Source of the DNA: Candidatus Doudnabacteria bacterium
GTDB taxonomy: Bacteria > Patescibacteriota > Doudnabacteria > UBA920
Direction of reading: 5' to 3'
DNA length: 64,000 nucleotides
Assembly: GCA_963768175.1 (NCBI GenBank)
Contig: CAVYGQ010000001.1
Location: forward strand, 766,305-830,304
Shown here: positions 4,025-29,272 of the stretch, piece after piece
Layout: each line of letters begins with the position of its first letter
Position numbering within the stretch: the first letter of the stretch is position 1
Translations under genes and position numbers: made by a program
The notes under the pieces: generated by a model
Told to the model about the DNA's origin: nothing
What the model saw: the letters and a program-made list of their open reading frames with translations, nothing else
The model's database searches: none

Positions 4025-4051
4025 GAGTGCTTATTCGTGCGAATTAGCACT
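4025..4051. repeat. left arm of a 27-bp perfect inverted repeat bracketing the arsR-like gene; overlaps its stop codon
   Basis: gagtgcttattcgtgcgaattagcact matches the reverse complement of 4315..4341 at 27/27 positions. Confidence 0.8.
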
Positions 4052-4304
4052 GGTCAAGGATTTGTTTTAGAACCAAAGGTTTTGGATTAACTAAACTATA
4101 AAAAACCATTAAGCTCTGCTGATCGGCAAATACCATTTCCGCGGCTCTTAAAACCGCCAAATGTCGCGAGGTAGATTTAAACGAAAGTTTAATTTCTTTG
4201 GCAATGTCGCCAACCGAAGCCTTATTGACCTTGTCCAGATATTTTAAAATCTTAAGCCTTCTTGCGTTTGCCAAAGCTTTTAATTGTTTTTCTAATTCTT
4301 TCAT
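4044..4304 (-). CDS. ArsR/SmtB-family winged-HTH transcriptional regulator (86 aa)
   Basis: LANARRLKILKYL...SVGDIAKEIKLSFKSTSRHLAVL HTH signature; GGAGG Shine-Dalgarno sequence 6 nt upstream of the ATG. Confidence 0.7.
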   Translation of the reverse strand: MKELEKQLKALANARRLKILKYLDKVNKASVGDIAKEIKLSFKSTSRHLAVLRAAEMVFADQQSLMVFYSLVNPKPLVLKQILDQC

Positions 4305-4314
4305 AAATACCTCC

Positions 4315-4341
4315 GAGTGCTAATTCGCACGAATAAGCACT
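4315..4341. repeat. right arm of the 27-bp inverted repeat, lying between the promoter region and the RBS of the arsR-like gene
   Basis: Reverse complement of 4025..4051; contains an internal agtgct/agcact hairpin. Confidence 0.8.
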
Positions 4342-4353
4342 CGTCTCCATTGT

Positions 4354-7317
4354 TTAATAGCTCCACGCTAAATCGCCTTTATTGGTACTAACCTTTAACA
4401 AATCCAAACCGGTAATTGATTTTAAAATTACGCCGGTTTTGTCTATGCCGACAAGAGAAGTCTTTTTACCGTTATAAACCGCTAAAATGACATAGGTTTT
4501 CTTGGCGGCCACGTTCTGGGAAAGGAAGGTTAAATTATTGTTTTTATCATATGCCCAAACAAAAGCCAAAATGTTTTTGCTGATATCCTGTAATATTCCG
4601 CTATAACTTAAAGACTGGATGGTAGACTGCATGCTGATTTTGCGGTTCTTTTCCTTAAGCTTAATCTCCGTGTTATTCCCGGCTTGGTCGGTAAGCAAAA
4701 TGTCATTTACATTATCCAGCACGGTAACTTTGGATGTGGTGGAAATATTATCACTGCCGGTAAACTGGATGTCTTTAAGCGAAGGGTTAAATTGTATAAC
4801 CGCTTCCGGGGCGGTTTTGTCTATGGTAAAGTTGGTGGTTTGTGGCTGTTCGTTATTCCCGGCTTTGTCGGTGGAAAAGAAGCTGATTGTATGCAGGCCT
4901 TCGGAGGTAACGCTAACTGTTCCCATTCCTCCCCCTTCTAGGGGGAGGCTAGGTGGGGGTGTTAAAGTTTGCCAAACTCCTCCGTCTAAACTGTATTGTG
5001 TTTTTAGTATTCCCGATGTGGTGGAGGCATTATTGTCTACTATTGGATCTTGCGCAGCCAAAGCCACGCTAACATTGCTCCTGTAAAACCCCGGCTGTCC
5101 CATAGTACCAATAATAGTTGAAGTGGAAACGGGAGGGGTGAGATCTTGAGATTGGTCTGCGTTGATGGTACTATCAGGGGTTACCACAACAGGAGTACTG
5201 GTAGGCGTGGCCTGTAAAGTTAAAGTAGTCTGCCCATTATCCCCGCCCAAATTTACTTGGCCGGTTAAAGCGGGAGTTACCGGCAAGTTAGAAAAGACCT
5301 GGGTTTGGGTTGTGACATTCCCACTTATACTTTCGTCATCCAGAGTAAAGGTCCCTGCCGCCGTACCAGCTATATTAATATCATAATTTTGATTATTATC
5401 CGTTGGTAAAAACACATATTTTTCATCTCCCCAGACTTCATAATCCGCTCCGGGAATAGAATTCTCTATTGAACCGTCCGGCAGAAGCCCTGAATGATTG
5501 CCATCTTGGTCAACTACGTCAATTGCCAAAGGGCTATGAATTTTTAAACTTTCCCCTTTAATTTCACAAAGGTCTGGCTTATTGGCCACTTCACCTTGAG
5601 TTAATATTTTCCCGCTAGTATCCAAAGCGCCGCCCGTAAGAATGTTTACAATTTCCTGACGGGAACCGTCTGCGCTAAGCAGGTTTCCGTGGTTTATGCC
5701 CGGCGCGAAAAATGTTCTGGTCTCATCTACCGGCAAACTGTCCGCGCTGGCAAAAGGTACAGTCCCGTCTCCCGAAGTGACTTTTGGAAAATTAAATGTC
5801 GGGGCCGAATTTTCATTAATCCATTCTGTAAACTTACCCAACGTCCCTGATTTACAACCAACTATGTTATATAAATCCACACCAGCGTTTCTTAAATCGT
5901 AGTTATCAAAATCCGCGGTATGCAAATCAGTACTACTAGCCACGCCTTGATTGTTAGCATAACTAGCACCCACCAAGTTCTGCATAGTCTCGGTAAAATT
6001 TAAGTCTTTATCTAAAATAGGATTTGTTAGAGGATTATGAAGGTGAAAAAAACTTCCGGCTTGATTATAGTATTCTTGCGTCGGAGCCAAATCATAAATC
6101 ACCGGCATATTTTGGCCTATCTTTTTCATTTCTAAAGGATTAAGCTCAGGGACGCCAAAATCGTCCCCCACTACTAAAGCTTTTAAAGCCTGTGGCGCGC
6201 CCAAGTTTGGCACGCCCACAAGCACCGCTTTACCAATATGGTGGTCGGTCGGATTTTCCCTTACATATTTTTTTACCAAAAGTCCGCCTGTACTATGGGC
6301 AACAACATTAACCACACTACTCCCCGTAGTGCTAGCAATATATGCAATCTCTCCTTTTAATTGGTTAACCGTGTCTTCACTAACCCCAAACCGCCAATCG
6401 TAAGGAAAAGTAAAAAGATCCTTGCCTTCAGTGTAACCGATGTCGGGAGAAGTAAGTTGATTAATTAAGCCATCTGTATAATGAGAAATAAAACCTATCG
6501 CTCCCTTTTGTCTTATAACTGACCCTAAGGTAAGACTAGCATTAAGCGGCGTCAAATTTTGATTAAAGGCTAACGGATCCATAAAGCCATCTGAAATAAA
6601 ACTCATTTTTGGATTTGCCCATAATAAATTAGTTCCTTGATATATATCTGTTCCTAAAACCCCAGGGACAACTAAAATGGGAACTTTTTGATTGTCTGTA
6701 ACATAGTGCATTCTAAACCACATTGCATAATTGGGATAAATAAAACTCAGGTTAAATTGACCGGCGCCAAGCCATGGGACAGTATTACTGTCTGTTCCGG
6801 CGGCTTCCACATTTTTCATTCCTCCGAGAAAAAACAAGATAAATTTTTTCGTTAAGTCACAAACCGGGCCATTATTTGGATCTATATTAAATTGAAACGA
6901 AAACTCTTGAAAACTATCACTCAATTGATCTTGACTAACAGAATTAAGCGAGGTTAAGTTAGCCAAAAAGAAATCTTCGTCTTCGCCATGCTCGTTGCAT
7001 AAAACTGTCATCTGTACAGGAAAGTCTTGGCCACCAGGGAATTTTCGAAGTCTAACATCTATAGAAGATAGTTTGGCCGGTACTTGGGACAAAAGTTCCG
7101 GAGGATATTTATTATAATCAAAACTTAACATTGTTAGCCCATAACCTGGTTCTTGCACTTGGGCAACATTGCCATTATCATTAACAAACATATCTCCTGC
7201 ATAAAAAGCCGGAACAATGGTACCATCTTGCAGGCCCTGAAAATAAAAAACATCCGATGCCGAAACAAACGCCGGTATAAGTAATAATCCCGAAACAAGC
7301 ACAATGCGCTTGAACAT
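4354..7317 (-). CDS. secreted alpha/beta-hydrolase (lipase/esterase, PGAP1/LCAT-like) with C-terminal Ig-like beta-sandwich domains (987 aa)
   Basis: N-terminal signal peptide MFKRIVLVSGLLLIPAFVSA; GxSxG nucleophile elbow VVAHSTGGLL; Thr/Ser-rich C-terminal repeats; carries an in-frame GC-palindromic element (4928..4961). Confidence 0.6.
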   Translation of the reverse strand: MFKRIVLVSGLLLIPAFVSASDVFYFQGLQDGTIVPAFYAGDMFVNDNGNVAQVQEPGYGLTMLSFDYNKYPPELLSQVPAKLSSIDVRLRKFPGGQDFPVQMTVLCNEHGEDEDFFLANLTSLNSVSQDQLSDSFQEFSFQFNIDPNNGPVCDLTKKFILFFLGGMKNVEAAGTDSNTVPWLGAGQFNLSFIYPNYAMWFRMHYVTDNQKVPILVVPGVLGTDIYQGTNLLWANPKMSFISDGFMDPLAFNQNLTPLNASLTLGSVIRQKGAIGFISHYTDGLINQLTSPDIGYTEGKDLFTFPYDWRFGVSEDTVNQLKGEIAYIASTTGSSVVNVVAHSTGGLLVKKYVRENPTDHHIGKAVLVGVPNLGAPQALKALVVGDDFGVPELNPLEMKKIGQNMPVIYDLAPTQEYYNQAGSFFHLHNPLTNPILDKDLNFTETMQNLVGASYANNQGVASSTDLHTADFDNYDLRNAGVDLYNIVGCKSGTLGKFTEWINENSAPTFNFPKVTSGDGTVPFASADSLPVDETRTFFAPGINHGNLLSADGSRQEIVNILTGGALDTSGKILTQGEVANKPDLCEIKGESLKIHSPLAIDVVDQDGNHSGLLPDGSIENSIPGADYEVWGDEKYVFLPTDNNQNYDINIAGTAAGTFTLDDESISGNVTTQTQVFSNLPVTPALTGQVNLGGDNGQTTLTLQATPTSTPVVVTPDSTINADQSQDLTPPVSTSTIIGTMGQPGFYRSNVSVALAAQDPIVDNNASTTSGILKTQYSLDGGVWQTLTPPPSLPLEGGGMGTVSVTSEGLHTISFFSTDKAGNNEQPQTTNFTIDKTAPEAVIQFNPSLKDIQFTGSDNISTTSKVTVLDNVNDILLTDQAGNNTEIKLKEKNRKISMQSTIQSLSYSGILQDISKNILAFVWAYDKNNNLTFLSQNVAAKKTYVILAVYNGKKTSLVGIDKTGVILKSITGLDLLKVSTNKGDLAWSY
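4928..4961. repeat. C/G-rich palindromic element (half copy) inserted in-frame in the hydrolase gene; encodes ...TPPPSLPLEGGGMG...
   Basis: cctcccccttctagggggaggctaggtgggggtg; the tail ctaggtgggggtg is identical to the end of the 23448..23536 copy. Confidence 0.7.
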
Positions 7318-7982: not shown

Positions 7983-8507
7983 TTATTTCGGAACTGGCAG
8001 GCCGATCTTTTTTAGTGGTAAGAACTGAAAATAATATTCACAACCCATTGAGATAACATAGTCTAAAGAGTCCTTATACCTTGGTTGCCGAAACCAATTG
8101 CTTAAAATATAAATATACTGAACTTTTATATTAAGTGGCTCCATAAGTTTTTTATATATTTTCTTTTTAAAATCGCAGGTTTGTAGCTTTTCATCAACTG
8201 AACCGGGAGTTTTTTGAAACTTTATTTCAATAACAAAAAGAGTGTTGTTTATTATAACAAACACCGCTTCGTCAGGGAGCCATTTTTTTGAAACTATTTT
8301 TTTATAATCAACTCCTTGTGATTCTAAATACTTATAAAGTGCATTTTTTCTATAACTCCTCGCAACCTCCTTGCCATTAAAAAGAATCGTGTGATCGTTA
8401 TATACTGTATAGCCTTTAGTTGTAGACAGCAACGTTAAAATATCTACCCGCTTTTCAAATTTTAGGCCTGTTTTTGTATTGGCTCCACCCTTACCTTTTT
8501 CTATCAT
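7983..8507 (-). CDS. putative PD-(D/E)xK-fold nuclease, candidate Type II restriction endonuclease
   Basis: WLPDEAVFVIINNTLFVIEIKFQK gives PD...(E)IK catalytic-motif spacing; lies in an operon with a DNA methyltransferase. Confidence 0.45.
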   Translation of the reverse strand: MIEKGKGGANTKTGLKFEKRVDILTLLSTTKGYTVYNDHTILFNGKEVARSYRKNALYKYLESQGVDYKKIVSKKWLPDEAVFVIINNTLFVIEIKFQKTPGSVDEKLQTCDFKKKIYKKLMEPLNIKVQYIYILSNWFRQPRYKDSLDYVISMGCEYYFQFLPLKKIGLPVPK

Positions 8508-8526
8508 AAATTTTTGCTGGATGTAA

Positions 8527-8961
8527 TTATAAATTATTTATAAGGTTGAGTTCAATTGAATGAGGCTTCCTATTTCGTTTTAAATACTCTCTTCCATTAT
8601 ATGCCAGCAATACAATAGCATCGTACCCGAGTTTTTTTGCTTTTTTATACATCTTAGAATCTAAACTAATTCTGCGGTTATACCAACCATCACCATCTTT
8701 TAAAGCTCCGGCATATAACTTCTTAAATTCTTTTGGAAACAAATGTTTTAAAATCCTAATTTCGGAAGTGCCACAAATTGGATTCAAAATTTTAACCTTT
8801 TCTGGGATGTCATTCGGCCTGCCGTAAAACTCGGCGTGCTTATATGTGGATGCAAGAAACTTGCCTCTCTTGTTATAAGCATTTGGATCAAGAGGGGTTA
8901 CATGCCACCATTTGGATTTATTAACTTTGTCAATAAGAATTTTTTTTAGAGAAGCTCTCAT
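8527..8961 (-). CDS. hypothetical protein (144 aa) within the R-M operon
   Basis: Start overlaps the MTase stop by 4 nt; no recognisable motif. Confidence 0.4.
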   Translation of the reverse strand: MRASLKKILIDKVNKSKWWHVTPLDPNAYNKRGKFLASTYKHAEFYGRPNDIPEKVKILNPICGTSEIRILKHLFPKEFKKLYAGALKDGDGWYNRRISLDSKMYKKAKKLGYDAIVLLAYNGREYLKRNRKPHSIELNLINNL

Positions 8962-9908
8962 AATAGTTGCCGTTGCGCTATTTTTGTAATAGCTGTAAAT
9001 TGAATTTTGGCTTTATTGTCTTTTGTATTTTGAATTCGTTTTATAGGGAGCATTATTTTATCCATTTCTCGTAGTCTTTTTATTGACAAATCCAAATACT
9101 TCTCTTCCATATCAATACCGATAAACTTTCTTTTAAAAGCGCTGGCCGCAATTCCGGTGGTGGAACTTCCGGTAAAAGGATCCAAGATCACATCTCCTTC
9201 TTTAGTACTTGCCAAAACAATTCGCTTAAGCAAATCTATGGGCTTTTGGGTTGGGTGTTTACCGAACTTTTTTTCTGACTTTCTTGGGGTCAGAATAGAC
9301 CAAACAGAGCGCATCTGCAAGCCTTCTTTCTTTAAAAAATCTTCAGGCCATTGGCCGTTCTTCATTAAATCATAATTAAAGGTGTGCTTGGCCTTTTTAT
9401 CTTTTCGCGCCCAAATAATAGTTTCATGGCTAGCGGTAAAAAAACGGCAACTTAAATTTGGTGAGGCATTTGGCTTAAACCAAGAAATATCGTTTAGAAT
9501 GTGATATCCCAAAGCCTGCAATGCATGGCCGCATTGATAAATGGAGTGGTAAGTACCGCTAACCCAAAGGCTGCCTGCCGGTTTTAAAACTCTTTTACAT
9601 GCTTCTAGCCATTTAAAATGAAATTCGTAATCGTCCTTAAAACCTTTACTTTTGTCCCAGTTCCCTTTGTTTACGCTTACCATTCTTCCTGCGTGTACAG
9701 AAAAACCTCCATTAGATAAGTTGTATGGGGGGTCGGCAAAAATCATATCTACACTATTTTCCGGAAGCTGACTTAAAATATCCAGACAGTTTGCATGATA
9801 CAAAACAAAATTATCCTTAATAAAATAAGGTTTTTGGGCGATATTGGATAATATTTTCGCTCCGTTTTCCATTTTTTTTCTTTTGTTGATTTTTCGTCTT
9901 TTTTTCAT
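8958..9908 (-). CDS. beta-class amino DNA methyltransferase (N4-cytosine or N6-adenine), motif IV DPPY preceding motif I; true start probably the internal ATG (MENGAK, about 9872)
   Basis: MIFADPPYNL (DPPY); C-terminal ILDPFTGSSTTGIAA (FxGxG-like AdoMet-binding loop); the -10 box abuts the first ATG. Confidence 0.8.
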   Translation of the reverse strand: MKKRRKINKRKKMENGAKILSNIAQKPYFIKDNFVLYHANCLDILSQLPENSVDMIFADPPYNLSNGGFSVHAGRMVSVNKGNWDKSKGFKDDYEFHFKWLEACKRVLKPAGSLWVSGTYHSIYQCGHALQALGYHILNDISWFKPNASPNLSCRFFTASHETIIWARKDKKAKHTFNYDLMKNGQWPEDFLKKEGLQMRSVWSILTPRKSEKKFGKHPTQKPIDLLKRIVLASTKEGDVILDPFTGSSTTGIAASAFKRKFIGIDMEEKYLDLSIKRLREMDKIMLPIKRIQNTKDNKAKIQFTAITKIAQRQLL

Positions 9909-14071: not shown

Positions 14072-14078
14072 AGAGGAA

Positions 14079-14116
14079 GTGATTAGTGCTTAGTGGTTAG
14101 TGGTTAGTTTGTAGTG
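14079..14116. repeat. degenerate TAGTG-type tandem repeat immediately upstream of the rpoC start
   Basis: gtgattagtgcttagtggttagtggttagtttgtagtg. Confidence 0.7.
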
Positions 14117-14160
14117 CAGGCCATTGGCCTGCCTTGATGTAAATGAAATATTTTCTCTTC

Positions 14161-14259
14161 GGCGTCATTCTGAGGGAGTGCATCCGACCGAAGAATCTCT
14201 AACCTGCATGAGATCCTTCGCCCGCTTGCTTTTACCGATGACGGGCTCAGGATGACGCC
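14161..14259. mobile_element. MITE-like palindromic element copy 1 (99 bp) with 14-bp terminal inverted repeats GGCGTCATTCTGAG/CTCAGGATGACGCC
   Basis: Terminal inverted repeats plus internal gcatccgaccgaag/atgagatccttcg motifs shared with the copies at 25348, 27879, 29169 and 57073. Confidence 0.75.
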
Positions 14260-14345
14260 ACTAGTAGGTGCCCTTTACAACTCTCTCTCTGTGTGCTATT
14301 TTTAGCTGTCCGATTCTTTTCGGAATGCGAAGGAGGTGAATTACA

Positions 14346-14624
14346 GTGGCTAACGTCCACAGACTGCTTGAAAATGTGGGGAAGGAGCTTCGTGCCTCTC
14401 GGGCAGGAGTAGGCATGTATTACGCTGGAATGGGAGCCAGAGAGCAAGGCCAAGTGGTGGAGAAAAATATGGAAAGGACTGAAATCAGGCTGGCAAGTAT
14501 CGCTCTACGGCTGAAACAAATCCAGTACGCCGCCGACATCGGAGACCTCACCGAAATCAAGCGGCTGCTCGCCGAGGAGATCCCGGTCAATGTTCTGCAA
14601 GCCCCGCAAACCCAGCCTGCCTAA
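14346..14624 (+). CDS. hypothetical 92-aa protein (GTG start, AGGAGG RBS), GC-rich cargo of cassette unit 1
   Basis: aggaggtg RBS 8 nt upstream; higher GC than the flanks; no family match recognised. Confidence 0.35.
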   Translation: MANVHRLLENVGKELRASRAGVGMYYAGMGAREQGQVVEKNMERTEIRLASIALRLKQIQYAADIGDLTEIKRLLAEEIPVNVLQAPQTQPA

Positions 14625-14630
14625 CTCGCG

Positions 14631-14735
14631 CCCGCCGGCGCAGACCTGCTTTGGCATCCGTAGATGCCCAAGTGGCGCCGCGGCAACCCCTTTTTTGACC
14701 GTTCAATCCGGTCAGGAGGGGTAATTTTTTTGCCC
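14631..14735 (+). terminator. conserved structured 3' element (nested hairpins cggcgc...ggcatc-cgta-gatgcc...gcgccg) followed by a CCCC...GGGG hairpin and U-tract
   Basis: The copy at 15128..15232 shows compensatory changes (ggcatc/gatgcc versus gacatc/gatgtc). Confidence 0.45.
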
Positions 14736-14847
14736 ACATTTATTTACATATGTAGAGGGCAGTCCGCCATAGCCTCTTTGTCCGACGAAGCTTTAGCGTA
14801 GTCGGATTTATCGGCTTAATTTTGAAATTTGGTATTGAAAATTGTGT

Positions 14848-14930
14848 AGCCGACCCGAATCTACAAATTGTATCCGAATGTTCCGAATTCGTGTCATTCG
14901 CGTGTAATTCGTATATCCGGATCGGTTATT
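14848..14930 (+). promoter_or_regulatory. CGAAT-rich promoter-associated element containing the core GACCCGAATCTACAAA
   Basis: Core shared with 51953..51968 and 62897..62912 (reverse complement); followed by ccgaat/attcg repeats. Confidence 0.45.
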
Positions 14931-15001
14931 GCTCTTTACAAACCTCTCTCTTATGTGCTATTTTTAGCTGCCCGATTCTTTCGGAAGGTGAAGAGGGTTT
15001 A

Positions 15002-15109
15002 TGAAAAAAAACGATTGGCAAATCTTGATATTGTTGATAGTGGTAGTAATCGCGACAATCGTCACAGTTGGTGGGGTGATCCTGTCAGCCATCGCCGTCC
15101 ATCACTGAT
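15002..15109 (+). CDS. 35-aa hydrophobic (single-TM) peptide MKKNDWQILILLIVVVIATIVTVGGVILSAIAVHH
   Basis: ATG with gaagaggg RBS inside the conserved leader of unit 2; not in the track (under 60 aa). Confidence 0.35.
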
Positions 15110-15127
15110 TCGTCGCCTCCCCGCCAC

Positions 15128-15232
15128 GCCCGCCGGCGCAGACCTGTTTTGACATCCAAAGATGTCAGAGCGGCGCCGCGGCAGCCCCTATCCAGTCGTT
15201 CAAACCGACGGAACCTGGGGCTTTTCTTTTTG
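15128..15232 (+). terminator. second copy of the conserved structured 3' element plus U-tract
   Basis: cgcccgccggcgcagacctgttttgacatccaaagatgtcagagcggcgccgcgg ... ggggcttttcttttt. Confidence 0.45.
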
Positions 15233-15258
15233 TAAATTTTTTAAGGTTCTTTGTCTTA

Positions 15259-15347
15259 TCCCCCTCTTAATATAAGAGGGGGTAGGGGGTGATATTTATC
15301 TTTGCGATAATATCCCCTCCTAGCCTCCCCTTATTCTAAGGGGAGGA
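15259..15347. repeat. C/G-rich palindromic element (two hairpins: ccccctctta-ata-taagaggggg and cctcccc-ttattctaa-ggggagg), intergenic, downstream of rpoB
   Basis: Member of the same poly-C/poly-G palindrome family as 4928, 23448, 35291 and 59194. Confidence 0.65.
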
Positions 15348-15370
15348 ATATTGTACCTATGTCTTCTCCT

Positions 15371-15408
15371 ATTCACTATTCACTATTCACTATTGCCTAT
15401 TCGCTATT
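15371..15408. repeat. heptamer tandem repeat (TATTCAC)n abutting the rpoB stop codon
   Basis: attcactattcactattcactattgcctattcgctatt. Confidence 0.75.
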
Positions 15409-18400
15409 TCTTCTTCTCCTTTTTCGGCTTTTTCTTAACTTCATCATCAAACAAAGAAGTTTCGGCTAAAATCGGCACTACCGGCGGTAAATTAGGCACT
15501 ACGATTTCCGGCTCTTCCGCCGCACTGCTTACCGCACCGTCGCGGCCTAAAAGCTCTACATCCATACACAGCGACTGGAGCTCTTTTACCAATACGCGGA
15601 AAGACTCCGGGATGTTCGGCTTTTTAATAGCTTCCCCTTTTACAATGGCCTCATAAGTTTTTGAACGGCCAACCACATCATCCGATTTTATAGTCAGCAT
15701 TTCCTGCAAAGTGTGCGCCGCGCCATAGCCTTCCAGCGCCCAAACTTCCATTTCCCCAAAACGCTGGCCGCCGAACTGGGCTTTTCCGCCCAAAGGCTGC
15801 TGGGTAATTAGGCTATACGGGCCAGTACTGCGGGCGTGCATCTTGTCGTCAACAAGATGGTGAAGCTTTAAGAAATACATAACTCCCACGGTAACTTTTT
15901 CGTCAAAAGGCTCGCCGGTTTTGCCGTCGTAAAGCGTCACCTTGCCGTCTTGTGGGATGCCGGCCTTTTTAAGCTCTTCTTTAATTTTATGTTCGGGTAC
16001 CCCGTCTAAAACGGGAGTCGCCACTTTATAACCCAGGCGATGGGCGGCCATGCCCATGTGGGTTTCCAAAATTTGACCCAGGTTCATGCGGGACACAACG
16101 CCAAGCGGGTTTAAAATAATATCCACGGGAGTGCCGTCTTCCATAAACGGCAGGTCTTCCACCGGAATAATTTTGGAAATGACGCCTTTGTTGCCGTGGC
16201 GGCCAGCCATTTTGTCGCCGACCTGGACTTTGCGCAAAACCGCGACCGAGACCTGGATGCTGCGAATAACGCCGCTTTGCAGCTTGTCCCCGGCTTCGCG
16301 CGTAAACTGGCGGATGTTAACGACTTTTCCGTATTCGCCGTGCGGCAAGGTAAGGGAAGTATCTTTCACGTCCCGGGACTTTTCGCCGAAAATAACTCTC
16401 AGGAGTTTTTCTTCCGCGGTTAAATCGGTCTCACCTTTGGGCGTGATTTTGCCGACTAAAATATCGCCAGCTTTTATCTGGGCACCAATGCGGATAATGC
16501 CGTTCTCGTCCAAATCCTTTAATTTTTCCTCGCCGACATTGGGAATATCCCGCGTTACCTGCTCCGGCCCGAGTTTGGTATCGCGCACGTCTATTTTAAA
16601 ATCATCAATGTGAATGCTGCTATAACGATCCTGCTGCACCAAGCGTTCGGAAATTAAAACCGCATCTTCGTAGTTGCCTCCCTCCCAAGACATAAAGGCC
16701 ACCAGCACATTTTGGCCCAAAGCCAGCTCGCCGCGATCCGTGGAGGCGCCGTCGGCTAAAATTTCGCCTTTCTTAATAGTCTGTCCCTTATTTACGCGGG
16801 CAATTTGGTTAATAGAGGTAGCGGAATTGGTACGCAAAAATTTCAGCAAAGGGTATTCTTTCTTTTTGCCTTTTTCGCCGACCACAATAATTTTTTCTCC
16901 GGTCACGGAAGTTACGATGCCGTCTTCATCGGCCAAAACCACGGTGCCACTGTCGCGCGCGGCCTTGCCTTCCATGCCCGTGCCGACTATGGGCGCTTCG
17001 GGCTTAATGCAGGACACGGCCTGGCGCTGCATGTTACTGCCCATAAGCGCGCGGTTGGCATCGTCGTGTTCCAAAAACGGAATCAACGAAGTGGTAACGG
17101 AAATAATTTGTTTTGGGGAAACATCCAAATAGTCTATGTCGTCGGTAGAAGCCATGGTCGGCACGGCGCGCACCCGGACGCTGGCTCTTAAATCCGCAAA
17201 GTGCCCGCGGTCATCAAGGTTAATATTGCTTTGGGCGATAATCAGCCGCTCTTCTTCATAAGCGTCCAAATATCTAATTTTATCCGTAACGCGGGGCTTA
17301 ATGCGGATTTCCAAAAGCTGGTGGTTTTTTGCCACTTCTTTGGCTTTGCCTGCGGTAATGGTTTCTCCGGCGGTAACTATTACGTCGCCTTTTTCGTCTT
17401 TAATATCATAAAGGGAAATTTCGTCTGCCAGATCCTTGCCGTCGTTTTTGGCGGATTTTTTTACCACCCGGTAGGGCGTTTCAATAAATCCAAAATTATT
17501 TACCCGCGCGTAAGTGGCCAAGTGGGCTACCAGCCCGATGTTCGGTCCTTCCGGCGTGGTAATCGGGCAAAGCCGCCCGTAGTGGCTGTGGTGCACGTCG
17601 CGGACTTCAAATCCGGCGCGCTCACGGGAAAGCCCTCCCGGCCCCATGGCAGACAGCCTTCTTTTGTGCTCCAGCTCGGCCAAAGGATTAGTCTGATCCA
17701 TAAATTGCGACAGCTGCGAAGAGGAAAAAAATTCCTGCATGGTCGCCACAATCGGCCGGACATGAATAAGCTGGGCCGGAGTCACGGTATCTAAATCCGC
17801 CAAGGACATGCGGTCTTTGGCAATTCTGGCCATGCGGGCAAGGCCTACGCGGAAACGGGCCTGGATAAGTTCGCCTACGGCCCTGACGCGGCGGTTAGCC
17901 AGGTGGTCAATATCATCCGGTGTGCCTTGGGAGTTGTTTAATTTAATTATTTCGCGAACGGCTATGACCAAATCTTCTTTGGTCAAAATCTGCCTATCTC
18001 GCTCTCTTAAAGCCGAGGCGGGGCTTTCGTTACCATCAACGTGCAAACGCTGATTAAACTTATAGCGGCCGACCGCGGAAAGATCATAACGTTCGGTGTT
18101 AAAAAACATTCCGGAAATTAAAGACTTGGCATTGTCTACCGTGGCTAAATCACCGGGTCTGATTCTTTTATAAACTTCCTTATAGCCTTCGTCCGGGTTG
18201 GTAGAGGCGTCCTTTTCCAAAGTGTTTTGGATATATTTGGTGTCCGGGTCGGTATCGACATCGGCAAAAGCGGCTAATATTTCTTCATTGCTGCCTAAGC
18301 CAAAAACTCGCAGTAGCGCGGTTATGGGGATTCTTCTTTTGCGGTCGATTTTAACGCCAATCACGCCGGTGGCGTCGGTATCCAGTTCCAGCCAGGCGCC

Positions 18401-19321: not shown

Positions 19322-19669
19322 CTATGCCGTACCGCTTTGCTTAATATAATCGCTAATCCGCTGCTGGTCTTCCCTCGCTTGCTCACCTTTAAAATACAGT
19401 TCAATAAAGACTATTTCTTTCTTGTTGGGGTGATAGGCATAAATTATCCTTAGTGTATTTTTCTTCAAAAATCGGCAAAAAAATCGCGCTTTGGCAATTT
19501 TTAACTCGCTGTTTTGGAATAAAACAGCAAAATGCTTGTCAGTTCCAAGCGGCACTTCTTCCAAAACTTTCTTGAACACTTCCAAATCTTCGGGCAGGGA
19601 AAGGTATTTTTTGCCCAGCCGTTTGCAATTTTTGGTAAATTCAGGTAATTCATTAAAGTTCATCGTCAT
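19322..19669 (-). CDS. RelE/ParE-superfamily (HigB-like) toxin; start assumed at the internal ATG (MTMNFNEL), overlapping the upstream antitoxin stop
   Basis: C-terminal RIIYAYHPNKKEIVFIELYFKGE pattern typical of RelE/ParE; 17-nt overlap with the HTH gene. Confidence 0.5.
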   Translation of the reverse strand: MTMNFNELPEFTKNCKRLGKKYLSLPEDLEVFKKVLEEVPLGTDKHFAVLFQNSELKIAKARFFCRFLKKNTLRIIYAYHPNKKEIVFIELYFKGEQAREDQQRISDYIKQSGTA

Positions 19670-20429
19670 AATTGCGGACCGAATGTTCCTGATCACGGTA
19701 AAAAACACTTTCGTAATCTATTGCTTCTCCGGGTTTATGAACCATCCAAGGTATATCTGAATGGGAATATTTGCTTAATTCCGAAGCGGATTTATCGGAA
19801 AGCCGGTTTAACACCTCGTCAATATGTGCCAATTCCCGCGCGGACAATACTGTTAAATCCGCCTCTTCTCTCGGTAAGTATTTTTTTTGCTCATACTGAA
19901 AATAGCTGCTTTTAACTTTTTCCAGTTCATTTTGCGCTTCCATTTCTTTAACCAAACTCGAAAATTCCCTGGGAGTGGGTCCAAAATGATTGCGGATATA
20001 AGTCGCGCCGGTTAATTGTTCCTCAAACTTTTCATAAAAATCAAAATCAACAAAATATAACAACTTATAAAGTGCAGTTTCACCTATGTTGGGTTTGGCG
20101 CCGACTTTCCCCAAAATATATAACAAAACACTTTTAAATTTGTCAACGTTCAACTTGGGGACATTAATTCTAACTTCATTTTCAATTTCCGATTTTTTTG
20201 CCCTATTATCTAATTTTACCTTATGCTCGATAGGCGAAATTTGCGCCAAAAAATCGTCTAAAGGCAAACCAAAAAGCTCCGCGAGTTTTTGAGCTTCAGA
20301 TACTGTTAGCTCCCTTTCCCCTTTTTCTATTTGCATATAAGTGGGGCGAGAGACATTAATTTTTTGGGACACAAAATTCTGGGAAAATTTCGCATTTTCC
20401 CTCAATTTTTTGAGATATAGTCCAGTCAT
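19653..20429 (-). CDS. XRE-family HTH antitoxin-like protein with a C-terminal roughly 170-aa domain (possibly DUF4065/Panacea-type)
   Basis: N-terminal LYLKKLRENAKFSQNFVSQKINVSRPTYMQIEKGERELTVSEAQKLAELFGL HTH_XRE; first gene of a two-gene operon behind a consensus promoter. Confidence 0.6.
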   Translation of the reverse strand: MTGLYLKKLRENAKFSQNFVSQKINVSRPTYMQIEKGERELTVSEAQKLAELFGLPLDDFLAQISPIEHKVKLDNRAKKSEIENEVRINVPKLNVDKFKSVLLYILGKVGAKPNIGETALYKLLYFVDFDFYEKFEEQLTGATYIRNHFGPTPREFSSLVKEMEAQNELEKVKSSYFQYEQKKYLPREEADLTVLSARELAHIDEVLNRLSDKSASELSKYSHSDIPWMVHKPGEAIDYESVFYRDQEHSVRNYDDEL

Positions 20430-20460
20430 AGGGCTTAATCCTTTATTATTACTTTTCTTA

Positions 20461-20488
20461 ATTATATCAAAGTTAAACTATTTGTCAA
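20461..20488 (-). promoter_or_regulatory. consensus sigma70 promoter TTGACA-16-TATAAT for the toxin-antitoxin operon
   Basis: Reverse complement reads ttgacaaatagtttaactttgatataat; about 25 nt upstream of the HTH gene start. Confidence 0.55.
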
Positions 20489-20603
20489 TAGCTATAGTAA
20501 ATAACCTTTACAAATCATCAATTCCCTGCTAAACTATAAGGTAAGGTGGAGGCCAATAACCGAAACCAAAACTAATAATTAACTTGCTATGAAAGGAGCA
20601 AAT

Positions 20604-20765
20604 ATGCCAAAGCAACATCGTCACGTTGTCGATTTTGTGGCCCACAAGAAAGTTAAGGAGCCTGTAGAAGTCACTTTTGTGACCAATAAGGGTAAAGTAG
20701 TGGATTTTCCGGCCCACAAAAAAGTCAAAGAACCTGTGGAAGTCAGGTTCAAGGCCAAAGATTAA
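20604..20765 (+). CDS. 53-aa protein with two tandem 17-aa repeats (VDFVAHKKVKEPVEVTF / VDFPAHKKVKEPVEVRF)
   Basis: aaaggagc RBS 4 nt upstream of the ATG; strong terminator immediately downstream; not in the track (under 60 aa). Confidence 0.4.
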   Translation: MPKQHRHVVDFVAHKKVKEPVEVTFVTNKGKVVDFPAHKKVKEPVEVRFKAKD

Positions 20766-20796
20766 ATTAACTTCAAAAAAATGAAATCAAAATTTT

Positions 20797-20836
20797 AAAA
20801 GGCCGCGGCCAAAATAGTCGCGGCCTTTTATTTTGT
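20797..20836. terminator. intrinsic terminator (11-bp perfect stem aaaaggccgcg/cgcggcctttt); also serves the convergent DUF262-HNH gene
   Basis: Perfect GC-rich stem with a U-tract. Confidence 0.7.
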
Positions 20837-20843
20837 ATATTTT

Positions 20844-21935
20844 TTATTTTCCGGATTTAGTTCTATTATCATCTACGCACAGCATCTGGCAATTTTCCGC
20901 CGTAGTCGCCCCTCCCTTGCTCCACGGTTTGATATGGTCGGCTTCCATTTCGGAAATATCATATTCTTTTTTACAAAACGGGCAAATGCCGTTTTGCCGC
21001 TCATACGCCTCACGCTTCATTTTGTCGGTAAAAGCACGGATTGAAAGGTATTTTTCTTGTCTCGTTAAAATATATGGGTAAATACCGGATTTTTTAGTTA
21101 CATCTTCGTCCTGCATTAACTCTTTAATTTCGGCTTCCAGTTTGCCGACATTCTGTTTCTTGTCTTTAAATTCGTTATACAGTTCGCCCCACTCTACACT
21201 ATTCATTTCCCGGCGATAATTCGTAAAAGTTTTTCGCACCCAATCAATTACTTCTTGAAAATACTCCCATAACTCATCGGCATTTTTATTATGCTGATGC
21301 TTAGCCATGTAATCTTCTATTTTGCCGTTGTTAATCCATGAAAGCGCGGTTTCCAAATATTCCTGCCGAATTGGCGAACCGCTTACCAACTGCCCGCCGT
21401 CGTTGGCCAGCAGATACGCCGCGCAATGCGTTTTGCTGAACTTTAGTTTTGCGTCACTAAGCCACGGCCCTGTGTAAACCGCGTTACGGATTTCCTGGTC
21501 GGTAAGTTTTTCGCCGGCGATGTTAATAATCCTGAACCAATCCAGCCGCTCTTTATCCGTGCCCTCGCAAAAATAAATCATCAGCTCGTAATCCAAAATC
21601 CGGTTTTGTTCTTCGTCGGTTAGATTATGAAAATACATCTCGTTAAGTGAAAAATCACCGGCAACATATTGCCCGATGCTAATGGTGCGCTGTTGGCCGT
21701 CCAAAACTTCAAAATTGCCGGAATCATTTTTCATCCAGTACATTACATTAAGCGGGAAGCCATTTTTGATGGTTTTAATAACGGCATTGCGCTGCTGCTC
21801 CTTATAAACAAACTCCCGCTGATATTTTGGCCGGATATCCAGCTTGCCGCTAAAAGCTACTACGCCCTCCTCGGCGCTGTCTTTATAACCAGCAATTACT
21901 TTTCGTATAGTGATGCGATGTAAATCTATTTTCAT
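20844..21935 (-). CDS. DUF262 (ParB/Srx-like, DGQQR motif) plus C-terminal HNH nuclease; GmrSD-like candidate restriction component
   Basis: LDGQQRTISI motif; HNH signature CPFCKKEY...ADHIKPWSKGG...NCQMLCVDDNRTK. Confidence 0.7.
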   Translation of the reverse strand: MKIDLHRITIRKVIAGYKDSAEEGVVAFSGKLDIRPKYQREFVYKEQQRNAVIKTIKNGFPLNVMYWMKNDSGNFEVLDGQQRTISIGQYVAGDFSLNEMYFHNLTDEEQNRILDYELMIYFCEGTDKERLDWFRIINIAGEKLTDQEIRNAVYTGPWLSDAKLKFSKTHCAAYLLANDGGQLVSGSPIRQEYLETALSWINNGKIEDYMAKHQHNKNADELWEYFQEVIDWVRKTFTNYRREMNSVEWGELYNEFKDKKQNVGKLEAEIKELMQDEDVTKKSGIYPYILTRQEKYLSIRAFTDKMKREAYERQNGICPFCKKEYDISEMEADHIKPWSKGGATTAENCQMLCVDDNRTKSGK

Positions 21936-21936
21936 A

Positions 21937-23004
21937 CTAATTGATTACTTTCTTATTTTTTATGATAACTCGCGCGTAAGGAACGTCAACGGCTCCATTT
22001 GTAATCATGTACAAATCACCATCAACAGCTCCTCTTTTTTGAATTTCTTTCCTGTATTTTTTGTGGTTTTCTTTATAGGGCTTAACCCCAATTTCTATTC
22101 CCGAATTGGATATTCCCAAACCGATAATCTCAAATTGCTCCGGATTATATTTATCAAGAAAGGTAATAGGCACCCCTATAGCACCATTGTAGTCTGCCGG
22201 GATTTCAGAAGTTTTATTAACGTTAATAGCATCAAAATTTTCATACTTGGGATATTCTGTGGGAGTATATTTTTTATAAAGTAAAAAATTTTCATGACGC
22301 TCTTCGTAATCAAGGTTTGTAAACCAACGCACGCCTTTAACGCGAATATACTTGTGCCCATCCGCATCAACACGATAACTTGCCGCGTTCAGAGGATAAT
22401 CATCTGGTACCTGAAATTCACGATCGCCGCTATGGATACTCGCTCCAAGCCACATATTATTTTCTTTTATTAACTTAAAACACTCTTTATAAGTAATTGC
22501 ATTTACATTTCCAATTATCAAAAATTTCTTATTGTACTCCACCAACTGCGCAATATATTCTCTTAACAAAGAAAACGGCGGGTTGGTTACCACGATGTCG
22601 GCTTCTTTCAGCAGTTCAATACACTCCTGGCTTCGGAAGTCACCGGTGCCTATCATTTTGGTCATAAAATCATGCGGGTCGGGAACACGGCTGCCCTTTT
22701 TGCCGCCGGTGTATTCCAGTTTATATGGCGGTTCGTGGGTAAAAAGGTTGGCTTCTTTGTAATGAGTGGCAATGAGTTTCTTAAGTCCCAGTTCCGCAAA
22801 ATTTATGCTAAAATATTTCACAAAATTGCTTTCTTTCGGGTCGTCGCAATTACAAAACACCACTTTACCGCGAAACTGGTCTTTGTAGTGCTTAAGCTCG
22901 TTTTCAATATCGGCAAGCTGGGTATAAAATTCGTCTTTTTTTGCCCTGCTAGCCGTATGTAGATTTTTGTTTAAAAATTTCTTTTCCATGATTATTTTTA
23001 CCAA
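21937..23004 (-). CDS. putative N6-adenine DNA methyltransferase (gamma-like motif order: DEFYTQ motif X, then NPPF motif IV)
   Basis: DIVVTNPPFSLL (NPPF); N-terminal DEFYTQL resembling the (G/D)xFYTP AdoMet-region motif; lies upstream of the DUF262-HNH gene. Confidence 0.6.
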   Translation of the reverse strand: MVKIIMEKKFLNKNLHTASRAKKDEFYTQLADIENELKHYKDQFRGKVVFCNCDDPKESNFVKYFSINFAELGLKKLIATHYKEANLFTHEPPYKLEYTGGKKGSRVPDPHDFMTKMIGTGDFRSQECIELLKEADIVVTNPPFSLLREYIAQLVEYNKKFLIIGNVNAITYKECFKLIKENNMWLGASIHSGDREFQVPDDYPLNAASYRVDADGHKYIRVKGVRWFTNLDYEERHENFLLYKKYTPTEYPKYENFDAINVNKTSEIPADYNGAIGVPITFLDKYNPEQFEIIGLGISNSGIEIGVKPYKENHKKYRKEIQKRGAVDGDLYMITNGAVDVPYARVIIKNKKVIN

Positions 23005-23104: not shown

Positions 23105-24136
23105 ATGGACAATGTTATTGAAGTGCAAAACCTAAAAAAAGTCTACCCCTCGCCCAAAGGCAAACAGCCACTGGAAGCTTTAAAGGGTGTGTCTTTTTTT
23201 GTGGAAAAAGGCGAGGTCTTCGGCATTTTGGGACCCAACGGCGCGGGGAAGACCACGACTCTGGAAATTATAGAATGTTTAAAACCGCAGACTTCCGGGG
23301 AAGTTGCGGTTTTGGGGTTTGATAATGTTAAATCTCCCGATGATATAAAAAAACGCATCGGCGTGCAGCTGCAGTCCAGCCAATATTTGCATCATTTATC
23401 TTTAGGGGAACTGCTGGATTTGTTTGCCTCATTTTATGGAAATAAATCACCCCTCCCTAACCCTCCCCCTCCAGGGGAGGGAATAAACACCGCAATAAGT
23501 TCCTCCCCCTTGAGGGGGGAGGCTAGGTGGGGGTGGACAAAGGATGATAAAAAAAACCTATTACAGCTAGTGAGCTTAGAAGACAAAGAACATGCCGAAT
23601 TTGCCAACCTTTCCGGCGGGCAAAAGCAGCGCTTCACCATTGCCACCTCCTTGGTGCATGAGCCACAAATTTTGTTTTTGGACGAACCCACCACCGGGCT
23701 TGACCCGAAAGCGCGGCGCGACATGTGGCAACTGGTTAAGACCATTAATGCCCGCTCAATCACTATTGTCTTAACCACGCACTACATGGAAGAGGCGGAA
23801 TTTTTATGCCACCGCGTGGCCATTATGGACCAGGGGAAAATTTTGGAAATTGACGAGCCAAAAAAATTAATAGACCGCCTGTCGGAAACCACGCAGATTT
23901 CCTTTTTTACGGACAGCCGCCTTGACCAAAACTTTTTCCGCACATTGCCGGAAATAAAAAAAATCCACGCCAGCTATCCCAAAGTCATTTTGGAAATCAC
24001 TTCTTTGGATAAAATTTCCGCGGTGGTAAATTTATTAAAACAGCACAGCATAGTTTTTTATGGATTTACCGTCAAAACCGCCACTTTGGAAGACGTCTAT
24101 TTGAAACTTACGGGAAAGGAGTATGAAGAAGAATAA
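23105..24136 (+). CDS. ABC transporter ATP-binding protein with an in-frame 30-aa insertion encoded by a palindromic element
   Basis: Walker A GPNGAGKTTT; signature LSGGQKQR; Walker B ILFLDEPTTGLD; the insertion NKSPLPNPPPPGEGINTAISSSPLRGEARWGW sits between the Q-loop region and the signature. Confidence 0.9.
   Translation: MDNVIEVQNLKKVYPSPKGKQPLEALKGVSFFVEKGEVFGILGPNGAGKTTTLEIIECLKPQTSGEVAVLGFDNVKSPDDIKKRIGVQLQSSQYLHHLSLGELLDLFASFYGNKSPLPNPPPPGEGINTAISSSPLRGEARWGWTKDDKKNLLQLVSLEDKEHAEFANLSGGQKQRFTIATSLVHEPQILFLDEPTTGLDPKARRDMWQLVKTINARSITIVLTTHYMEEAEFLCHRVAIMDQGKILEIDEPKKLIDRLSETTQISFFTDSRLDQNFFRTLPEIKKIHASYPKVILEITSLDKISAVVNLLKQHSIVFYGFTVKTATLEDVYLKLTGKEYEEE
23448..23536. repeat. full-length C/G-rich palindromic element (89 bp; terminal inverted repeats cacccctccctaa / ctaggtgggggtg; two internal hairpins) inserted in-frame in the ABC ATPase gene
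   Basis: ccctcccc-ctcca-ggggaggg and cctccccc-ttga-gggggagg hairpins; GC composition far above the host gene. Confidence 0.75.
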
Positions 24137-24149
24137 TTAACCGACACCA

Positions 24150-24220
24150 ATACGCAAATTGGACGCGAATGATGCTAATTCGTATCATTAGCGTGACATT
24201 CGTAGATTAGCGTCGCCTAT
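24150..24220 (+). promoter_or_regulatory. conserved roughly 70-bp CGAAT-rich leader ending GTCGCCTATATG (start codon included); paralogous to 54450..54527
   Basis: About 85% identical to the ruvB leader; contains the palindromes acgaattcgt and gctaat-tcgtatc-attagc. Confidence 0.5.
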
Positions 24221-24964
24221 ATGAAATCTTTTATTGAATTATTCAAGGCAAATTTCAAAATGTTCTACCGGGAAAAGGAAGGCTTTTACTGGACGGTGTT
24301 AATGCCAACTTTTATTTACATCGCCCTGTCCATTTTGCCGATTGGCAAAACCATTGGCGTCAATTTAAAATACTCCAGCTACGTGCTCCCGGGCATTATT
24401 GCCATGACTATTATGCAAGGCGGCATTTACAGCCTGGCTTATTGGATGGTGGACTTAAAGTCCCGCGGCATTATTAAGCGCCTGCTGGCCACCCCGCTTA
24501 AGCAGTGGCAACTGGCCTTGAGCCTGGTTGGCGCCAGGCTGGTAGTGGTAATTTTCCAGGTAATTATTCTAACCCTGCTGGGGATTTTAATTTTTCATGC
24601 CAGCTTTGCCGGCAACGTAACATCCACGCTTGTTTTGGTGCTCTTGGGCGGCGCGATTTTTTTGCTCTGCGGCCTGCTCATTTCCACTTTCGCCAAAAGC
24701 TATGACGCCGCCGCGCCGATTACCTCGGCTATTGCCCTGCCGCTGACTTTTTTGGGAAACATTTTTTACCCCATAGAAGCACTGCCTAAGGCCTTGCAAA
24801 TTTTTGCGCGCCTTTTGCCCATTACCTATCTGGCCGACGGCCTGCGCCAGGCATACTTGTATCCGTTTAACTTTGCCGTGATTGGCAAAGATATTTTTAT
24901 TCTTGCTTTGTGGCTGATAGGGATGCTGGTTGTGACCATATCGCTATTTAGATTAAAAGAATAG
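24221..24964 (+). CDS. ABC-2 family transporter permease
   Basis: Six hydrophobic segments; follows the ABC ATPase in the same operon. Confidence 0.75.
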   Translation: MKSFIELFKANFKMFYREKEGFYWTVLMPTFIYIALSILPIGKTIGVNLKYSSYVLPGIIAMTIMQGGIYSLAYWMVDLKSRGIIKRLLATPLKQWQLALSLVGARLVVVIFQVIILTLLGILIFHASFAGNVTSTLVLVLLGGAIFLLCGLLISTFAKSYDAAAPITSAIALPLTFLGNIFYPIEALPKALQIFARLLPITYLADGLRQAYLYPFNFAVIGKDIFILALWLIGMLVVTISLFRLKE

Positions 24965-25029: not shown

Positions 25030-25332
25030 CTACCTGATAACAAATTTTTCTTTAGCTACTGCTTTTATCGGCACATTCCAAGTAAAACCCAAAGCCAAAG
25101 CGTGGGTCACCCCCACGCGCACGCCGGTGTAGGAGCCGGGGCCTTTGTTGACCACGATTTTTGATATAAAATTGTGTTTTATTTTATGCGCTTTTAGAAA
25201 TTTATCCAAAAATCCCAACGTTTCATGCGACTTGTATGGATTGATTTTATAAGATCGCTTGATAATTTTCCCGCTATCAGCAACGCCAAACGTAACACTG
25301 CTAAAATCCGTTGTGTCAATGTATAGAATCAT
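25030..25332 (-). CDS. tsaB: TsaB/YeaZ-like N-terminal domain protein (about 100 aa, truncated relative to canonical TsaB); the track ORF extends into the MITE via a GTG start
   Basis: MILYIDTTDFSSVTFGVAD...NKGPGSYTGVRVGVTHA (GPGSFTGxRIG-like motif). Confidence 0.55.
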   Translation of the reverse strand: MILYIDTTDFSSVTFGVADSGKIIKRSYKINPYKSHETLGFLDKFLKAHKIKHNFISKIVVNKGPGSYTGVRVGVTHALALGFTWNVPIKAVAKEKFVIR

Positions 25333-25347
25333 AGCTACCTCTTCCAA

Positions 25348-25433
25348 GGCGTCATTCTGAGCCCGAATGCATCTGAAGGCGAAGAATCTTTTATGAGATC
25401 CTTCGGTCGGATGCACTCCCTCAGGATGACACC
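25348..25433. mobile_element. MITE-like element copy 2 (86 bp)
   Basis: ggcgtcattctgag ... ctcaggatgacacc terminal inverted repeats; internal atgagatccttcggtcggatgcac. Confidence 0.75.
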
Positions 25434-27873: not shown

Positions 27874-27878
27874 AAAAT

Positions 27879-27974: not shown

Positions 27975-27982
27975 AATATAAA

Positions 27983-29152: not shown

Positions 29153-29168
29153 AAAAATACTGCCATTT

Positions 29169-29254: not shown

Positions 29255-29272
29255 GGACACACTAGCTCTAAT

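Follow-up and report, generated by a model that had tools for sequence, protein, structure and literature searches.

The palindromic repeats dispersed through the window, that is, the whole 64,000-nucleotide (64-kb) stretch of Candidatus Doudnabacteria DNA analysed here, are probably hairpins of the CGTC-tagged REP super-family, paired as heterodimers with their tags outward in the manner of REPINs and BIMEs and spread through the handling of single-stranded DNA hairpins in trans, a reading to which we assign a probability of about 0.7. The initial annotation had described four palindromic elements of 86–99 bp and one partial copy as a MITE-like family with 14-bp terminal inverted repeats (TIRs). 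The four palindromes are real, and each consists of two inverted units with the tags outward (head–head); the true repeat is a hairpin unit of 25–55 nt rather than the palindrome of about 90 bp. The supposed partial copy at 57073–57110 does belong to the family, but it is a complete, untruncated single unit. The copies in the window are as follows.

14161–14259, head–head dimer 1: T-type unit at 14161–14199 (+), inner sequence GGAGTGCATCCGACC; spacer 14200–14209; C-type unit at 14210–14259 (−), inner sequence CCCGTCATCGGTAAAAGCAAGCGGG
25348–25433, head–head dimer 2: T-type unit at 25348–25390 (+); C-type unit at 25395–25433 (−), with a TGTC tag
27879–27974, head–head dimer 3: divergent C-type unit at 27879–27938 (+), GTCATCCCTTCACTT...CGAAGGATCCC; T-type unit at 27944–27974 (−)
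29169–29254, head–head dimer 4: C-type unit at 29169–29198 (+), loop CGCAG (minimal form), closing pair A-T; T-type unit at 29214–29254 (−)
57072–57109 (+), single complete unit: T-type, inner hairpin CCGCC-GGA-GGCGG

Anatomy of the unit and of the dimer

The 14-mer GGCGTCATTCTGAG, with up to two mismatches, occurs at eight sites in the window, where chance would give 0.22. It lies at both ends of dimers 1, 2 and 4, at the right end of dimer 3 and at 57072; the left end of dimer 3 is a divergent variant, GACGTCATCCCTTC, which matches the 14-mer at 9/14 positions. The pattern TCATYCTGA-N(3-33)-GAAGRATC was likewise found eight times (0.00 expected), and a fuzzy scan of the window that admitted degenerate copies returned no additional ones. 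The unit reads GGC-GTC / ATYCT / GA / G-(inner hairpin)-C / GA / AGRAT / CTC, the first G of the tag being optional. Its tag, CGTC or in some cases TGTC, is unpaired; the 5-bp stem ATYCT/AGRAT comes next, and the tandem G·A/A·G and a closing G-C pair lead up to an inner hairpin that can be exchanged, with CTC as the tail. What had been taken for the TIRs of an element is the tag plus the 5′ stem arm of this independent unit, which also occurs alone.

The tag is CGTC in eight cases and TGTC in one case in the window; C precedes GTC in 83/90 distinct flanks of the related CPR loci, and TGTC prevails in units on viral contigs. The 5′ flank is poor in G, with C or T preceding GGC in 77/90 cases. 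The first stem position is A-T in 183/187 units and the second T-A in 186/187, and the CTC tail is reflected in a TC after ATC in 63/83 CPR units and, among the matches listed, in 180/231 viral units. The inner inserts measure 7–45 nt in the window copies, and CPR-lineage units are 34–55 nt long as a whole.

The third stem position covaries. In all eight exact units of the window, the Y of the 5′ arm is complementary to the R of the 3′ arm. In a set of 322 units drawn from the window, 42 Patescibacteria loci and 120 viral contigs (the viral part being among the matches listed), this position is T-A in 169, C-G in 148 and discordant in only 5, so that 317/322 units carry a Watson–Crick pair (Fisher p = 5e-86). 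Since the search patterns admitted all four Y/R combinations, ascertainment does not account for the concordance. Relaxing the patterns gave T-A in 89, C-G in 87 and G-C in 6 units at position 3, and T-A in 169 and C-G in 15 at position 5. The pair adjoining the tandem G·A is also Watson–Crick in 203/215 distinct units, as G-C, A-T, C-G or T-A. Covariation extends in the CPR sub-family to the arms on either side of the inner core GAGTGCATCCGA, with 110/129 pairs Watson–Crick in 36 distinct arm combinations (for example GCC/GGC, CCC/GGG, TCC/GGA, CCG/CGG and TCAT/ATGA). Identical inner arms occur in this sub-family with T-type and C-type clamps alike, and the window units 14164–14197 and 25397–25430 differ solely in the covarying pair; linkage of two old sub-families thus cannot explain the concordance. 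The hairpin of each unit is kept by compensatory change.

Among the five-nucleotide minimal loops, CGNAG is the commonest (45/60), giving GCGNAGC flanked by GA/GA. From work ascribed to Hirao and Yoshizawa, GCGNAGC is reportedly the classic, unusually stable DNA mini-hairpin with a GNA triloop and sheared G·A pairs. By analogy, the minimal-loop unit may be such a stable GNA-triloop mini-hairpin; under the DNA parameters of ViennaRNA, single units fold no better than their shuffles (z = +0.3 to +1.6 for two units). The minimal 27-mers have eight stem positions and a 5-nt loop, provided that the tandem G·A is counted as stem. A hammerhead or K-turn reading of CUGA...GAAG was rejected on inspection for want of a CUGANGA core and a 3-nt bulge, and integron attC sites, dif/Xer sites and CRISPR were set aside because neither their end motifs nor their arrangement fits.

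Dimers of the CPR lineage follow a heterodimer rule. Within 309 kb of CPR loci, there were 32 head–head dimers and neither tail–tail nor head–tail dimers, with spacers mainly of 14–18 nt, and T-type units were combined with C-type units in 30/32 of these dimers and in 4/4 in the window. This pairing leaves the stem of each unit perfect while introducing G·T and A·C into the long hairpin of the dimer, so that a long perfect palindrome is spoiled. Dimers on viral contigs are more mixed (25 head–head, 25 head–tail and 6 tail–tail among the matches listed), and single units number one in the window and at least 142 in viral contigs. An alignment of dimers from seven unrelated loci has sharp ends, running exactly from GGCGTCAT to ATGACGCC, between unrelated flanks.

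According to the MITE interpretation, the elements would be deletion derivatives of a DDE-type insertion sequence (IS), with 14-bp TIRs recognized as double-stranded DNA and insertion accompanied by target-site duplication. In its favour, the elements measure 86–99 bp, end in nearly perfect 14-bp inverted repeats and are dispersed between genes, traits shared with MITEs such as Correia elements. However, the duplication proposed as a check is absent: at the true dimer boundary, the two flanks share 0 nt in 31/35 dimers, 1 nt in 3/35 and 2 nt in 1/35. Furthermore, the 'TIR' and its partner box form an independent unit found singly and in many genomes, compensatory changes within a unit are unexpected for TIRs, the two 'TIRs' differ systematically as T-type and C-type in nearly all CPR dimers, and neither a parental IS with matching ends nor any transposase was found in the window and the 309 kb of CPR loci. 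We therefore consider the MITE label highly improbable.

Relation to known REP systems

The assignment to the CGTC-tagged REPs is based on the text of Di Nocera, De Gregorio and Rocco (2013; PMC3733652) and the peptides in its supplement. As given in that text, these REPs have an unpaired CGTC tag with TGTC or CCTC as allowed variants, A-T residues at the first and second stem positions, a stem of 8–9 bp with a loop of 4–5 nt (other loop lengths occurring in some families) and an unpaired 3-nt tail with the consensus CCA. Head–head dimers predominate, tail–tail dimers are rare, head–tail dimers are negligible and heterodimers are common. The repeats lie between unidirectional or convergent ORFs, sometimes over gene ends, and have no flanking or dedicated transposase. 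Judged against this description, the window family agrees in the tag, the start of the stem, the predominance of head–head dimers, the common heterodimers, the gene setting and, within the partial genome sample searched, the lack of a flanking transposase. It comes near in stem and loop, which fit in the minimal 27-mers if the tandem G·A is counted but are altered by the inner inserts of the window copies, and in the tail, which is conserved but reads CTC. The five host phyla given in the same text do not include Patescibacteria, and our literature search for REPs or MITEs in CPR returned no earlier report; the CGTC-tagged REP super-family is here extended to Patescibacteria. Searching the literature with the raw sequence brought up nothing beyond coincidental primer matches.

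Among the families treated in PMC3733652, CGTC-2 resembles the window family in the tag, the A-T/T-A start of the stem, a minimal form of eight stem positions, counting the tandem G·A, with a 5-nt loop, and a tail of 3 nt. The two are also alike in the dominance of head–head dimers, common heterodimers, the setting between unidirectional or convergent genes, the occasional overlap with gene ends and the lack of a known flanking transposase. The Sulfurovum CGTC-2 peptide RHSELVSGS in the supplement back-translates to CGTCATTCTGAG...CTCAGGATC, and its 5′ arm CGTCATTCTGAG is the same as that found here. The 3′ arm differs, reading CGAAGRAT here and CTCAGRAT in CGTC-2, and the replacement of CTCAG by CGAAG turns two Watson–Crick pairs of CGTC-2, as reconstructed from that peptide, into the conserved tandem G·A/A·G. 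The tail differs too, being CTC here against the consensus CCA of the paper's text, and the loop described there is replaced here by the long, lineage-specific inner hairpins.

Other systems are more distant. The REPINs of the REPIN–RAYT system (Bertels and Rainey, 2011; PMC3116915) are likewise made up of a pair of inverted REPs that, together with the short spacer between them, act as one unit; they are intergenic and long-lived, lack target-site duplications and are inherited vertically, but their tag is GTAG instead of CGTC, and no RAYT was found in the CPR sequence searched. Escherichia coli BIMEs also pair two REP sub-types, Y and Z, obligatorily and in inverted orientation, as T-type and C-type units are paired here, whereas the sequences are unrelated and the tag orientation and linker motifs differ. 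According to the text of PMC3733652, Rickettsia RPE-4 and RPE-6 correspond to CGTC-4 and CGTC-1, respectively, and Neisseria dRS3 also belongs to the CGTC super-family. These elements can be absorbed into coding sequence, as here, but their stems are of the ATTCCC...GGGAAT type, unlike the stems in the window. Moreover, RPEs often lie inside genes, whereas the window copies affect a gene end only.

Genomic setting, transcription and age of the copies

Pfam searches identified the neighbours of the copies as TsaB-like, FemAB, RuvA, cytidylyltransferase-like and radical-SAM proteins, with rpoB and rpoC flanking dimer 1. Dimer 1 lies within a repeat-rich rpoB–rpoC spacer of 1.3 kb, 90 nt upstream of the rpoC start. 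Dimer 2 occupies the entire spacer between a Mur ligase gene and tsaB, whose ribosome-binding site (RBS) and ATG (25332) come directly after it. Dimer 3 is located between convergent genes beside a separate hairpin with a T-run at about 27981–28017. Dimer 4 sits in a small co-directional spacer bounded by the stop of ruvA (29273) and the start of FemAB (29152), so that FemAB is, as had been noted, bracketed by two copies. The single unit starts 8 nt past the stop of the cytidylyltransferase-like gene, between convergent genes; downstream of it, at 57119–57153, comes a separate hairpin that is rich in GC and has a T-rich tail. The earlier statement that all copies are intergenic holds for most of them, but the Mur ligase ORF 25421–26761 (−) ends within dimer 2, its stop (25421–25423) being the TGA of a CTGA box.

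The rpoB–rpoC spacer (14072–15403) contains, besides dimer 1, a duplicated cassette on the opposite strand. Promoter-like sites of the form TTTACA-17/18-TATTTT with a TG lie at 14274–14302 and 14935–14964, and an RBS with a small ORF comes after each of them, one ORF being at 14346–14624 (92 aa) and the other, hydrophobic and of about 35 aa, running from about 15001. After the small ORFs comes a 63-nt structured repeat, at 14629–14691 and 15127–15189, the two copies being 86% identical. Tandem heptamer repeats edge the spacer, TTAGTGG-like at 14082–14115 just upstream of rpoC and CTATTCA-like at 15365–15410 by the rpoB stop.

The setting of the copies invites an explanation at the RNA level, in which an intercistronic or 3′-UTR hairpin would be selected for mRNA stabilization, processing or translational coupling, and the family would reflect function rather than mobility. 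All five window copies lie in places that are necessarily transcribed, within operons or just past stops, the dimers fold as RNA with −39 to −47 kcal/mol (z = −4.9 to −7.2), the copies are old and their sites are conserved across species. In the stems of the CPR sub-family, G·T exceeds A·C by 11:1, largely owing to one inherited variant; the broad set, however, has no wobble bias (G·T:A·C 15:15), and at the covarying pair U·G-type combinations are as rare as C·A (3 vs 2 of 322). Any transcript across a dimer contains the unit in both orientations, GNA triloops of the DNA type are favoured as minimal loops over GNRA or UUCG, and the family is tied to no particular genes. Rfam gave no match at the gathering score over the whole window and only chance-level matches at E up to 5 over 25200–29400. 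Furthermore, units were found among the structural genes of a phage and on plasmids from unrelated phyla. We consider it unlikely that the family is primarily an RNA-level element.

The terminator or attenuator function suggested in the initial annotation fares worse. The copies are strong palindromes downstream of genes, but none is followed by a T-run, and the terminator scan reported none. Two copies lie within operons directly before an RBS, and two others precede a separate hairpin with a T-rich tail, which we read as a terminator. Because of the lack of a T-run, rho-independent termination is rejected as extremely improbable.

Comparison of insertion sites had been proposed as a further check, and some sites proved to be filled in certain relatives and empty in others. 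The closest genome among GTDB representatives, CAZQFQ01 (L144), with about 80% DNA identity over genes, has dimers 2 and 4 at the same positions, and a Ca. Doudnabacteria MAG (L148) likewise contains dimer 2. The syntenic metagenome contigs L164 and L166 contain no units in 22 kb and have unrelated sequence at the sites of dimers 2 and 4. Where the dimer 2 site is filled, the Mur ligase ends in ...KLTSMVSS*, ...KLTSSASS* or ...KLTSASS*, the stop being the TGA within the CTGA box, and relatives with an empty site end in ...GKLV* or ...KMEIKGN*. Dimer 2 has replaced the stop codon of the Mur ligase, a case of gene-end capture. At this site, the ligase-adjacent unit is kept in all three genomes, and the inner module of the other unit differs in each.

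Copy identity reaches at most 89% within one related genome and 91% at the highest between genomes, and some element sites are conserved between species with only about 70–80% DNA identity. There is thus no sign of recent movement, and a functional element maintained by the host would fit the data equally well. The repeat population is old and structurally constrained, undergoes turnover and bears no sign of a recent burst.

Alternatively, some conserved protein with which the host handles its DNA (a recombinase, for instance, or a factor resembling gyrase or IHF) might bind the units, which would have spread by gene conversion rather than transposition. Binding by gyrase or IHF-like factors has been proposed for E. 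coli BIMEs. The near identity of the box sequences across phyla and the turnover of one unit at an orthologous site next to a retained neighbour are in keeping with such a role, as is the lack of a known dedicated transposase for CGTC repeats in the text of PMC3733652. Conversely, related lineages do without the elements at these sites and elsewhere in 22 kb, the covariation implies an extruded hairpin rather than duplex recognition, and the same text argues that the uneven distribution of CGTC repeats excludes a general chromosomal role. We regard this origin as improbable. A role in RNA or in protein binding may nevertheless coexist with a REP origin.

Further differences between these genomes were observed around dimer 3. 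A segment of 1.2 kb at 26771–27989, which includes an ORF at 27196–27873, dimer 3 and the adjacent putative terminator hairpin, is missing in CAZQFQ01 (L144 6096–6118), where the Mur ligase and FemAB genes abut. Since the segment is present in L148, L164 and L166, it was deleted in CAZQFQ01, with one end of the deletion beside the REP dimer. At the site of dimer 3, L166 has a different palindromic repeat at about 6190–6270, which starts with GTAGGGGC and looks like a GTAG-type REP. Different kinds of REP appear to occupy one convergent-gene spacer in the window and in L166.

Distribution, possible mobilization and other features of the window

A pattern specific to the sub-family matched 42 stretches in more than 10 related MAGs, nearly all classified as Ca. 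Doudnabacteria, 'Ca. Saccharibacteria' or Patescibacteria. The fact that 24/42 of these stretches lie on 19 contigs of one MAG indicates that the family is genome-wide in the CPR lineage and that the window is not a local duplication; together with the sharp boundaries in unrelated flanks, this bears out the earlier suggestion of an abundant, dispersed, non-coding family. The generic unit is distributed more widely. It occurs in at least 120 IMG/VR stretches, one of them on a contig that is a true phage (terminase, portal and capsid genes) with at least six units, and on plasmids of Hymenobacter, Calothrix, Planktothrix, Oscillatoria, Aquicella and Granulicella, with Cyanobacteria, Bacteroidota and Acidobacteriota among the phyla. 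The plasmid of Calothrix sp. PCC 7716 (L170) has a head–head dimer at 2500–2590 that combines a T-type unit with a G-C-pair unit (GTCATGCTGA...GAAGCATCTC), and stem position 3 thus adopts its third Watson–Crick state in a cyanobacterium. A BLAST search of the unit against cultured-phage genomes gave no significant match.

The 64-kb window and the 309 kb of related CPR loci yielded neither a Y1/RAYT nor any other transposase, and no IS with matching ends was present among the 8-kb stretches that made up the related-genome sample. A phmmer search with the E. coli RAYT (checked against 4ER8) and an approximate IS608 TnpA query, run on 10,264 stop-to-stop ORFs of at least 60 aa from 170 loci plus the window, hit nothing in CPR sequence; its sole Y1_Tnp match was on the viral contig L056, where it is flanked by a different repeat, and none was found close to the units of viral contigs. 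Pfam detected no transposase among 39 ORFs (30 from the window and 9 from the phage contig L035), and clustering of the ORFs near elements in CPR loci revealed no recurrent multi-copy gene. The text of PMC3733652 likewise treats CGTC repeats as 'orphans'.

Considering these results, we propose the following scenario for CGTC-type REPs in the window. A hairpin-specific enzyme acting in trans would handle the units as hairpins of single-stranded DNA and so spread them, or would formerly have done so; by analogy with RAYT/IS200, an HUH/Y1 transposase of the RAYT or IS200 type is our default guess, which we put forward only tentatively. Copies would persist by landing in the very small spacers that separate co-directional or convergent genes, where they would be co-transcribed and would form very stable RNA hairpins able to change mRNA 3′-end stability and gene ends. 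Judging from E. coli REPs, an effect on 3′-end stability and, where the stop lies inside the hairpin, on termination of the upstream cistron is likely.

A different scenario, which we consider unlikely, takes the unit as a pan-bacterial 'clamp' hairpin without a transposase of its own, with the inner hairpins as cargo. It would be carried between phyla by phages and selected for its structure even in CPR genomes of about 1 Mb. Either a conserved function in replication or repair or an unrecognized class of enzyme, other than a RAYT, would copy or maintain it. If so, CGTC repeats would be a separate kind of mobile or functional DNA and not a variant of REPs. What copies these repeats is left as an open question in the text of PMC3733652, and the clean covariation, the rule of T/C heterodimers and a clamp common to several phyla and a phage offer a good data set for addressing it.

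The repeats also matter for annotation, as they corrupt gene models in CPR MAGs: naive ORF calls extend tsaB and FemAB into them with false N-termini, as had been pointed out before, and the stop of the Mur ligase has been captured. A Logan contig of 1.9 kb ends inside one copy, suggesting that the repeats probably break assemblies. Patescibacteria have gene-dense genomes of about 1 Mb, which makes a density of about nine units per 64 kb, as in the window, plus at least two other palindromic repeat families, notable.

One of these, intergenic, rich in CGAAT/ATTCG, about 50–85 nt long and with copies 68–84% alike, is unrelated to the CGTC units. The other consists of CCCCTCC...GGGGAGG palindromes (TTCCTCCCCCTT..GGGGGAGGCTAGGTGGGGGTG) and also occurs in the element-free relative L164 (about 8690–8740). 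Their copies in the window are given below.

14847–14933, CGAAT/ATTCG family
24138–24224, CGAAT/ATTCG family
51951–52022, CGAAT/ATTCG family
54447–54531, CGAAT/ATTCG family
55570–55702, CGAAT/ATTCG family
62876–62924, CGAAT/ATTCG family
4926–4961, CCCCTCC...GGGGAGG family
15262–15350, CCCCTCC...GGGGAGG family
23450–23535, CCCCTCC...GGGGAGG family
35287–35325, CCCCTCC...GGGGAGG family

Several other features of the window were recorded. A perfect 27-nt inverted repeat (GAGTGCTTATTCGTGCGAATTAGCACT) at 4025–4051 and 4316–4342 exactly brackets a small ArsR-family HTH gene at 4044–4304 (−). The window is dense in defence-type genes. Those at 7983–9908 and 19653–23004 include genes for an N6_N4 DNA methylase, for an EcoRI-type methylase beside a GmrSD/HNH nuclease and for an HTH protein resembling SocA/Panacea antitoxins; a Fic/RhuM protein is encoded at 33463–34518. 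Three large paralogous ORFs (1049, 627 and 1103 aa) at 39757–48527, in which 300-nt blocks at 42311, 44339 and 48007 are 82–99% identical, adjoin a gene for a T2SSE/PilB-type ATPase at 48855–50525. At the right edge, 61731–63967 (−) contains a recF-type gene (SMC_N/AAA in Pfam) and a putative dnaN ORF, and most of the window has a negative GC skew, which turns positive at 40–48 kb, suggesting that the window starts beside the replication origin and lies on one replichore.
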